Source: Escherichia coli
Lineage (GTDB): Bacteria; Pseudomonadota; Gammaproteobacteria; Enterobacterales; Enterobacteriaceae
NCBI RefSeq assembly: GCF_050920415.1
Contig: NZ_CP169309.1
DNA length: 64,000 nucleotides
Strand: one strand, 5' to 3'
Position numbers and translations under genes: made by a program. The notes under the pieces were generated by a model. That model saw only the letters and a list, made by a program, of their open reading frames with translations, did no database searches and was not told the origin of the DNA. Shown here piece after piece: positions 43,819 through 44,233 of the stretch; positions within the stretch are counted from its first letter, which is position 1, and each line of letters starts with the position of its first letter.

Positions 43819-44022
43819 TCAAACCATCACCAGCGATAACTCTTTGCCAAGCGCCTTAGCCGCAAGCTGGACGGCGTCGATTTTTGTCGCATGGTGCAAG
43901 TTAAATAAGCGCGTAATTTCCTGTTTAGGTTTGCCAATTCGCCTGGCTAACTCTTGCTGAGTGATTTCTGACGGTAAAAAAGCATTTAACAGCAATACCT
44001 TAGAGGCGACGCTCAAAGGCAC
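43819..44022 (-). pseudogene. hicB: 3' remnant of HicB antitoxin (DNA-binding C-terminal domain only); hicA absent
   Basis: GTG-initiated 67-codon frame (M)PLSVASKVLLLNAFLPSEITQQELARRIGKPKQEITRLFNLHHATKIDAVQLAAKALGKELSLVMV; in-frame TAA 12 codons upstream; no hicA-like ORF in 44023..44233. Confidence 0.6.
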
Positions 44023-44233
44023 TTCAATAAAGTGATCGTGACTATTTAATGGCGAAGTTTACCTCCGTGTGTAATGTGCTCGAAAATAGCACTAAATCGC
44101 CGCAACGGCAGAATGCAATGCAAAATCAGGAAGGAAGATTCCAGAATTTCTTTGCGCTAATTTGCAAAACTGAATAATAACCTCAAGAAACGATCGGCAT
44201 CATAGCGGCAAAAGGTGAGAAAAAGGTGGCGGG

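Follow-up and report, generated by a model that had tools for sequence, protein, structure and literature searches.

A common 445-bp deletion in the hicAB locus of Escherichia coli and the probably decaying 3' hicB remnant left behind

The locus between ydcR and yncJ

The window, i.e., the whole stretch of 64,000 nucleotides of Escherichia coli DNA analysed here, holds between ydcR and yncJ only the 3' part of the antitoxin gene hicB (Table 1). Both flanking genes are present and their order is collinear with K-12, which agrees with the original prediction that this is the yncJ-hicA-hicB-ydcR locus, and rlhA/ydcP follows yncJ on the minus strand.

Table 1. Features of the hicAB locus in the window (positions are those of the 64-kb stretch)
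Feature	Position	Strand	Description
ydcR	42334..43740	-	PLP-dependent aminotransferase-family regulator; intact left flank of the remnant
hicB-ydcR spacer	43741..43818	-	one promoter-like site inside
hicB pseudogene remnant	43819..44056	-	1 nt of codon 60, codons S61-V138 and TGA (43819-43821)
GTG-initiated frame of 67 codons	43819..44022	-	HicB residues 72-138 with Q88P
deletion junction	44056..44057		...TGGCGAA/GTTTACC...; 445 bp of the ancestral locus absent
retained distal palindrome arm	44057..44062	-	GTAAAC (hicA orientation); TAA inside (44059-44061), an in-frame stop
retained yncJ/hicA divergent intergenic region, 177 bp	44057..44233		nearly identical to K-12 upstream of the deletion
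yncJ	44234..44464	+	intact right flank

The 67-codon frame noticed earlier is present with the translation then quoted, and its recognition as the C-terminal DNA-binding part of HicB was right. A phmmer search against the PDB aligned the frame with residues 72-138 of 'Antitoxin HicB' (6HPB, E = 1e-35) with Q88P as the sole mismatch, the matched E. coli HicB structures being 6HPB/6HPC and 6U0I, and a tblastn search with K-12 HicB found residues 61-138 at 44055..43822 (98.7% identity, E = 8e-47). The HicB identity of the remnant is thus confirmed at a level that far surpasses a chance match. The in-frame TAA reported upstream is also found, followed by 12 codons and then the GTG, in a translation that reads RR, stop, TSPLNSHDHFIE-V-PLSV. 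On the other hand, the distance of 210 bp given for the separation of the remnant from yncJ holds approximately for the GTG, which lies 211 bp from the yncJ ATG, but not for the remnant itself, as the homology to hicB begins 34 nt upstream of the GTG, at the deletion junction. No HicA-like frame had been found near the remnant, and this absence extends to the full 64-kb window, where the best tblastn match to K-12 HicA has E = 1.8.

In K-12 HicB, Pfam identifies the HicA-binding domain PF15919 (HicB_lk_antitox) at residues 3-67 and HTH_3 at residues 88-134, while the frame of the window matches HTH_3 (PF01381) alone (E = 7.7e-8, residues 20-63 of 67 aa); the remnant as a whole codes for the HicB linker and a complete Xre-type HTH domain. 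An NCBIfam scan returned no family for the window frame nor for full-length K-12 HicB, so that this library cannot discriminate. Compared with a HicB antitoxin, the remnant has the C-terminal Xre-type HTH and the orthologous position between yncJ and ydcR, as judged from the flanking genes and from alignments in which K-12 and 5400 other E. coli genomes are collinear with the window, and it lacks the PF15919 N-domain, an upstream cognate hicA and the autoregulated P2/hicO.

Alignment of the ydcR-yncJ intergenic region of the window with K-12 MG1655 and three other strains (alignment A1) contains a single gap of 445 bp (columns 317-761), and the rest is collinear and 97% identical. The gap comprises in K-12 179 nt of hicB (codons 1-60), the 45-nt hicA-hicB spacer, the 177 nt of hicA and 44 nt upstream of the hicA GTG. 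In the window, the junction reads TGGCGAA/GTTTACCTCC (44056/44057), with a positional ambiguity of 1 bp (G) equivalent to a microhomology of 1 bp. The comparison with K-12 that had been proposed for locating the breakpoints therefore yields one junction and one gap only, and it substantiates the deletion of the toxin gene and the antitoxin N-terminal domain with a 3' piece of hicB left in place.

Promoters and probable operator palindrome

Reviews describe two promoters for hicAB, a distal P1 with a CRP-S site that is activated by Sxy, and a proximal, HicB-repressed P2 that contains the operator hicO, the P2 transcript beginning at the hicA ribosome-binding site so that only HicB is made. Read in the orientation of hicA, the K-12 sequence is GGAG-GTAAACACTAATGTTTAC-TTTGT-TGATATACT-CAGCGGCAGGGAGGCGAT-GTG, and it includes an 18-bp palindrome, GTAAAC-N6-GTTTAC, 33-50 nt upstream of the hicA start (inverted repeat I18; locus extract 2391-2408), with a TGnTATACT box after it. 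The palindrome is kept from E. coli to Citrobacter (GTAAGC...GTTTAC in E. whittamii and GTAAACATAAACGTTTAC in Citrobacter), while in Superficieibacter both arms are changed in a compensatory manner (GTAATC...GATTAC), and each of the palindromes compared is followed by a -10-like box. Based on this conservation and on the placement of hicO in P2 by the reviews, the palindrome is probably the HicB operator hicO of P2, and TGATATACT may be the extended -10 of this promoter. A transcript starting ~7 nt downstream of TGATATACT would begin at the ribosome-binding site, in agreement with the reviews. A small upstream ORF in K-12 (GGAGG-N9-ATG within the palindrome) was also considered and was dropped because its ATG is missing in Citrobacter.

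The deletion took the ribosome-binding site, the TGnTATACT box and 12 of the 18 bases of the palindrome (two thirds). Hence, the 'old operator region' that had been described next to the remnant survives in part, with one palindrome arm and the upstream 177 bp kept, but P2 is gone and the palindrome is cut. The retained intergenic sequence contains a GGAGG at 44062-44066 and a weak CRP-S-like motif, TGCGC-N6-GCAAA, at about 44153-44168, and both the yncJ promoter and P1, the distal promoter of hicAB, are presumably located in it, the position of P1 being taken from the reviews. A sigma-70 consensus scan of the minus strand of 44057..44233 found nothing, and the same scan also misses P1 and P2 in K-12; a terminator consensus scan upstream of the remnant was likewise empty, so that these scans say little either way. 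No Rfam family matched 44057..44233, and over the whole locus only a chance snoRNA match and a sub-threshold match to the REP-derived naRNA4 after yncJ were obtained. The latter corresponds to a REP-like element at 44465-44508, 3' of yncJ (30.6 bits vs a gathering score of 59.5), and in strain 042 an IS1397-family transposase is annotated at the same position directly after yncJ (locus extract 2746-3938).

On the other side of the remnant, the hicB-ydcR spacer has a promoter-like sequence, TTGTCA-16-TAGACT, at 43801..43774, which is also present in K-12 and, as a consensus match only, may be considered a candidate ydcR promoter. That the 3' end of hicB tends to be spared is probably explained by the harm that deletions into the ydcR promoter would do.

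Prevalence, origin and decay of the deletion allele

Among 5426 complete E. coli genomes, the 445-bp segment of K-12 is present in 4256 and the exact deletion junction in 1092 (20%), the latter counted with a probe of 52 bp (26 bp per side) that cannot seed on long forms. The carriers include O25b:H4-ST131, BH100 and the E2348/69 type. In the carrier records inspected, PGAP annotates 'hicB ... incomplete; partial in the middle of a contig; missing N-terminus', with exceptions in the product name for MS1657 ('helix-turn-helix domain-containing protein') and E2348/69 ('HicB family antitoxin'), both of which are still flagged as partial pseudogenes. In NZ_CP169399.1, which is identical to the window over 901 bp (100% identity), PGAP likewise labels the stretch as hicB, incomplete and missing its N-terminus. 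A preprint of 2018 stated that phylogroup B2 has lost hicAB, and this one-line statement was all that a literature search for a dedicated account of the hicB pseudogene found. Considering the RefSeq/PGAP annotation and the reported loss in B2, the deletion allele is already known. The ydcR gene of the window differs at 57-61 of 1407 sites (about 4%) from the B2 and K-12 alleles and at 18-32 from its nearest sampled relatives. An identity of at least 99% over the locus was found in only 11 of the 5416 matching genomes, which suggests that the strain belongs to an uncommon lineage.

The 4256 genomes with the K-12 segment include about 886 (~16% of E. coli) in which a 22-bp deletion flanked by CGCA frameshifts the toxin gene and leaves hicB intact; this number is that of the 90-95% identity band to the 445-bp segment, of which all six listed examples span 423 bp. 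Strain 2014C-4135 is an example (locus extract 2182-2336; alignment A1 columns 575-596) that PGAP labels 'frameshifted'.

A scan with K-12 HicB against one genome per species, which returned 18 loci, gives the polarity of the change. The full rlhA-yncJ-hicA-hicB-ydcR arrangement with a full-length HicB occurs in E. whittamii, Escherichia sp. E1V33 and two divergent 'E. coli' species representatives, and a full-length hicA-hicB lies directly upstream of ydcR at four Citrobacter/Raoultella loci. In Escherichia sp. E1V33 (2780-2952) and Citrobacter sp. Cu233 (2779-2948), hicA is split into two overlapping, offset tblastn segments next to a full-length hicB, which suggests possible further frameshifts of the toxin alone. 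Three other Citrobacter genomes have a 3' hicB stub that adjoins ydcR, namely C. portucalensis (residues ~39-138, 100 codons; locus extract 2995-3303), C. amalonaticus (residues 67-137, 71 codons; locus extract 3001-3213) and Citrobacter sp. FP75 (residues 115-137, 23 codons; locus extract 3001-3069). The upstream neighbors of these stubs differ from those in the window, and the stubs therefore represent independent, parallel losses, so that loss of the hicAB module at this locus is recurrent.

As the full-length locus is found in other Escherichia and in Citrobacter, the long form is older than the genus, and the short form derives from it. The reverse polarity, in which a small HTH gene would be ancestral and the K-12-type hicAB foreign DNA inserted into it, had been named in the original prediction as the result that would overturn it, and we consider its probability negligible. 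The sole point for it is that toxin-antitoxin modules are often mobile, while intact hicA-hicB occupies the same place in other Escherichia and adjoins ydcR in Citrobacter, both sides of the gap are collinear with K-12, and the remnant begins at residue 61, within the span of the Pfam N-domain (3-67), with no start codon of its own there.

All 17 carriers sampled agree in the junction down to the single base, and the same gap block is seen in all short forms, but the flanks of the carriers fall into at least two divergent haplotype groups. One of them comprises the window/MFDS1022581, Z0117EC0005, 2013C-4282, RMDEC465 and R32_14_1F, and the remnants of this group differ at 2-5 of 317 sites from the phylogroup-D-like long forms 042 and N3, compared with 8-11 from the B2-type short forms. 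The presence of short forms on two backgrounds, the window type being nearer to the 042/N3 long forms than to the B2 short forms, would be explained if the same 445-bp deletion had arisen repeatedly at a structural hotspot. Such a hotspot could be seen in the 10-nt inverted repeat CGAAGGTAAA / TTTACCTCCG of K-12 (9/10 complementary; I2; locus extract 1954-1963 and 2404-2413), which lies on both breakpoints and could have favored hairpin-assisted slippage, and it would accommodate the soil strain VCSW7, in which the deletion junction is followed 20 bp to the right by a K-12-like allele and the yncJ protein is of K-12 type (locus extract 239-475). However, recurrent deletion would have to produce identical breakpoints in 17 of 17 carriers with just 1 bp of direct microhomology, homologous recombination readily exchanges flanking sequence in E. 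coli, and the nearest SNPs (37 bp to the left and 20 bp to the right) form a C...G pair in 16 of the 17 carriers and in none of the six long forms. Repeated origin is thus improbable, although not to the degree of the reversed polarity, and identical junctions despite divergent flanks are most simply explained by one old deletion whose surroundings were reshuffled by recombination. VCSW7, either a recombinant or an independent carrier, breaks the shared core haplotype, and for this reason we regard a single origin of the allele, with later spread by descent and homologous recombination, as no more than likely.

The fate of the remnant can be followed in its variation. We compared codons 61-138 of 17 short-form alleles, six long-form E. 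coli and four outgroup Escherichia, which is a small sample. Five of the six long-form E. coli peptides are identical and one has E90D, the remaining differences being synonymous, whereas 16 of the 17 short forms are altered with respect to the intact protein and one is unchanged. The changes in short forms are Q88P (window), P103H (common in the B2 type), K79N, G101S, E95G, L110F, H114Y, A125V, K127N, K127E, M137I, the nonsense codon S89* in VCSW7, a frameshift caused by a 1-bp insertion in R32_14_1F, and an extra in-frame deletion of 144 bp (48 codons) between CCTTAG direct repeats in E2348/69, in which most of the HTH domain is gone (locus extract 1642-1990), indicating that the remnant is dispensable. 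Variants private to short forms, counted by inspection and without a tree, are nonsynonymous or nonsense in 12 cases and synonymous in 3, against 8 and 39 in the intact genes (Fisher p = 1.6e-5; p = 0.014 against the E. coli long forms alone). Constraint is relaxed, and the ratio in the short forms matches the expectation without constraint, which, for a count in a small sample, suggests that the remnant evolves neutrally. It is truncated relative to ancestral intact orthologues and has secondary lesions in some carriers, as a pseudogene would; a stand-alone Xre-HTH regulator would need an intact, conserved ORF with its own start, while three of the 16 altered short forms are disrupted.

The original prediction had left room for an orphan DNA-binding fragment, and this suggestion is not supported in view of the lesions described above. 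For a functional remnant, transcription would start at the distal CRP-Sxy-dependent promoter and translation at the GTG or at a TTG close by, and the free HTH would dimerize and bind, e.g., the leftover half-operator or the operators of other hicAB copies. The frame does encode a complete HTH_3 and has stayed open in the window as in most of the carriers sampled, the reviews call the HTH domain of E. coli HicB structurally stable, with a dimer formed via the beta-strand after the HTH motif, and the 177 bp in which P1 is expected are kept, making a read-through transcript possible. On the other hand, the start codon is not new, since the GTG corresponds to Val72 inside HicB, for which K-12 uses GTA while many strains, some of them with an intact hicB, use GTG; nothing resembling a Shine-Dalgarno sequence occurs in the 15 nt that precede the GTG (GATCACTTTATTGAA), and the only GGAGG lies 40 nt upstream with the TAA after it. 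Besides, Q88P in the window puts a proline just N-terminal to the HTH_3 match, a single operator arm is left with P2 gone, and the differing lengths of the Citrobacter stubs indicate that no particular length is kept. Together with the neutral variation, the internal-Val GTG without a Shine-Dalgarno sequence argues for a decaying pseudogene, presumably not expressed, and a functional orphan protein appears unlikely on the sequence evidence; we give a working regulator very little credence. Still more speculative, by a small step, is the thought that in lineages with an intact frame a P1 transcript yields free HicB HTH as a small DNA-binding protein, e.g., one cross-repressing hicAB-like operators of prophages or plasmids; if true, a toxin-antitoxin module would have been domesticated into a stand-alone regulator.

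Meaning and comparison with known systems

Overall, we hold with high confidence that the window contains the hicAB locus after one 445-bp deletion, that the leftover is a non-functional, decaying 3' pseudogene, and that the allele is old and common. We propose that such a deletion, by taking the toxin and the toxin-neutralizing domain together, would be a safe route to the loss of a toxin-antitoxin module, that an HTH domain would still be readable in the leftover hicB piece only because decay has not yet erased it, and that this piece would persist between the promoters of ydcR and yncJ as a neutral filler. The strain of the window, like about a fifth of sequenced E. coli (ST131 and other B2 included), is thus without the chromosomal HicAB module, and the appropriate annotation for the short HTH frame is a pseudogene rather than a protein. 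The deletion allele is real but ordinary, widespread and already annotated, and its significance goes little beyond bookkeeping, apart from providing a small case study of how a chromosomal module may be lost safely and of repeated inactivation of the same locus, as seen in the 22-bp hicA frameshift and the independent stubs of Citrobacter.

Compared with hicAB of K-12 (hicA/yncN and hicB/ydcQ; PDB 6HPB/6HPC), the window has the same chromosomal locus and collinear upstream intergenic sequence, and 77 of the 78 residues of the remnant are identical to HicB 61-138, while hicA, HicB residues 1-60, the hicA ribosome-binding site, the P2 -10 box and most of the palindrome are missing. The hicB pseudogene annotated by RefSeq PGAP in, e.g., the ST131 strain 4433, AREA_492, BH100 and MFDS1022581 is the same allele with an identical junction, within which the window type (Q88P) and the B2 type (P103H) differ also in their flank haplotypes. 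E2348/69 and the window have the 445-bp junction in common, and the 144-bp deletion belongs to E2348/69 alone. The 22-bp hicA allele inactivates the same toxin-antitoxin module, but there the toxin alone is lost and the antitoxin and promoters are kept. The three Citrobacter stubs resemble the window in that hicA and the 5' part of hicB are gone and a 3' piece remains beside ydcR, and they differ from it in their breakpoints (residues ~39, ~67 and ~115) and in their upstream neighbors.
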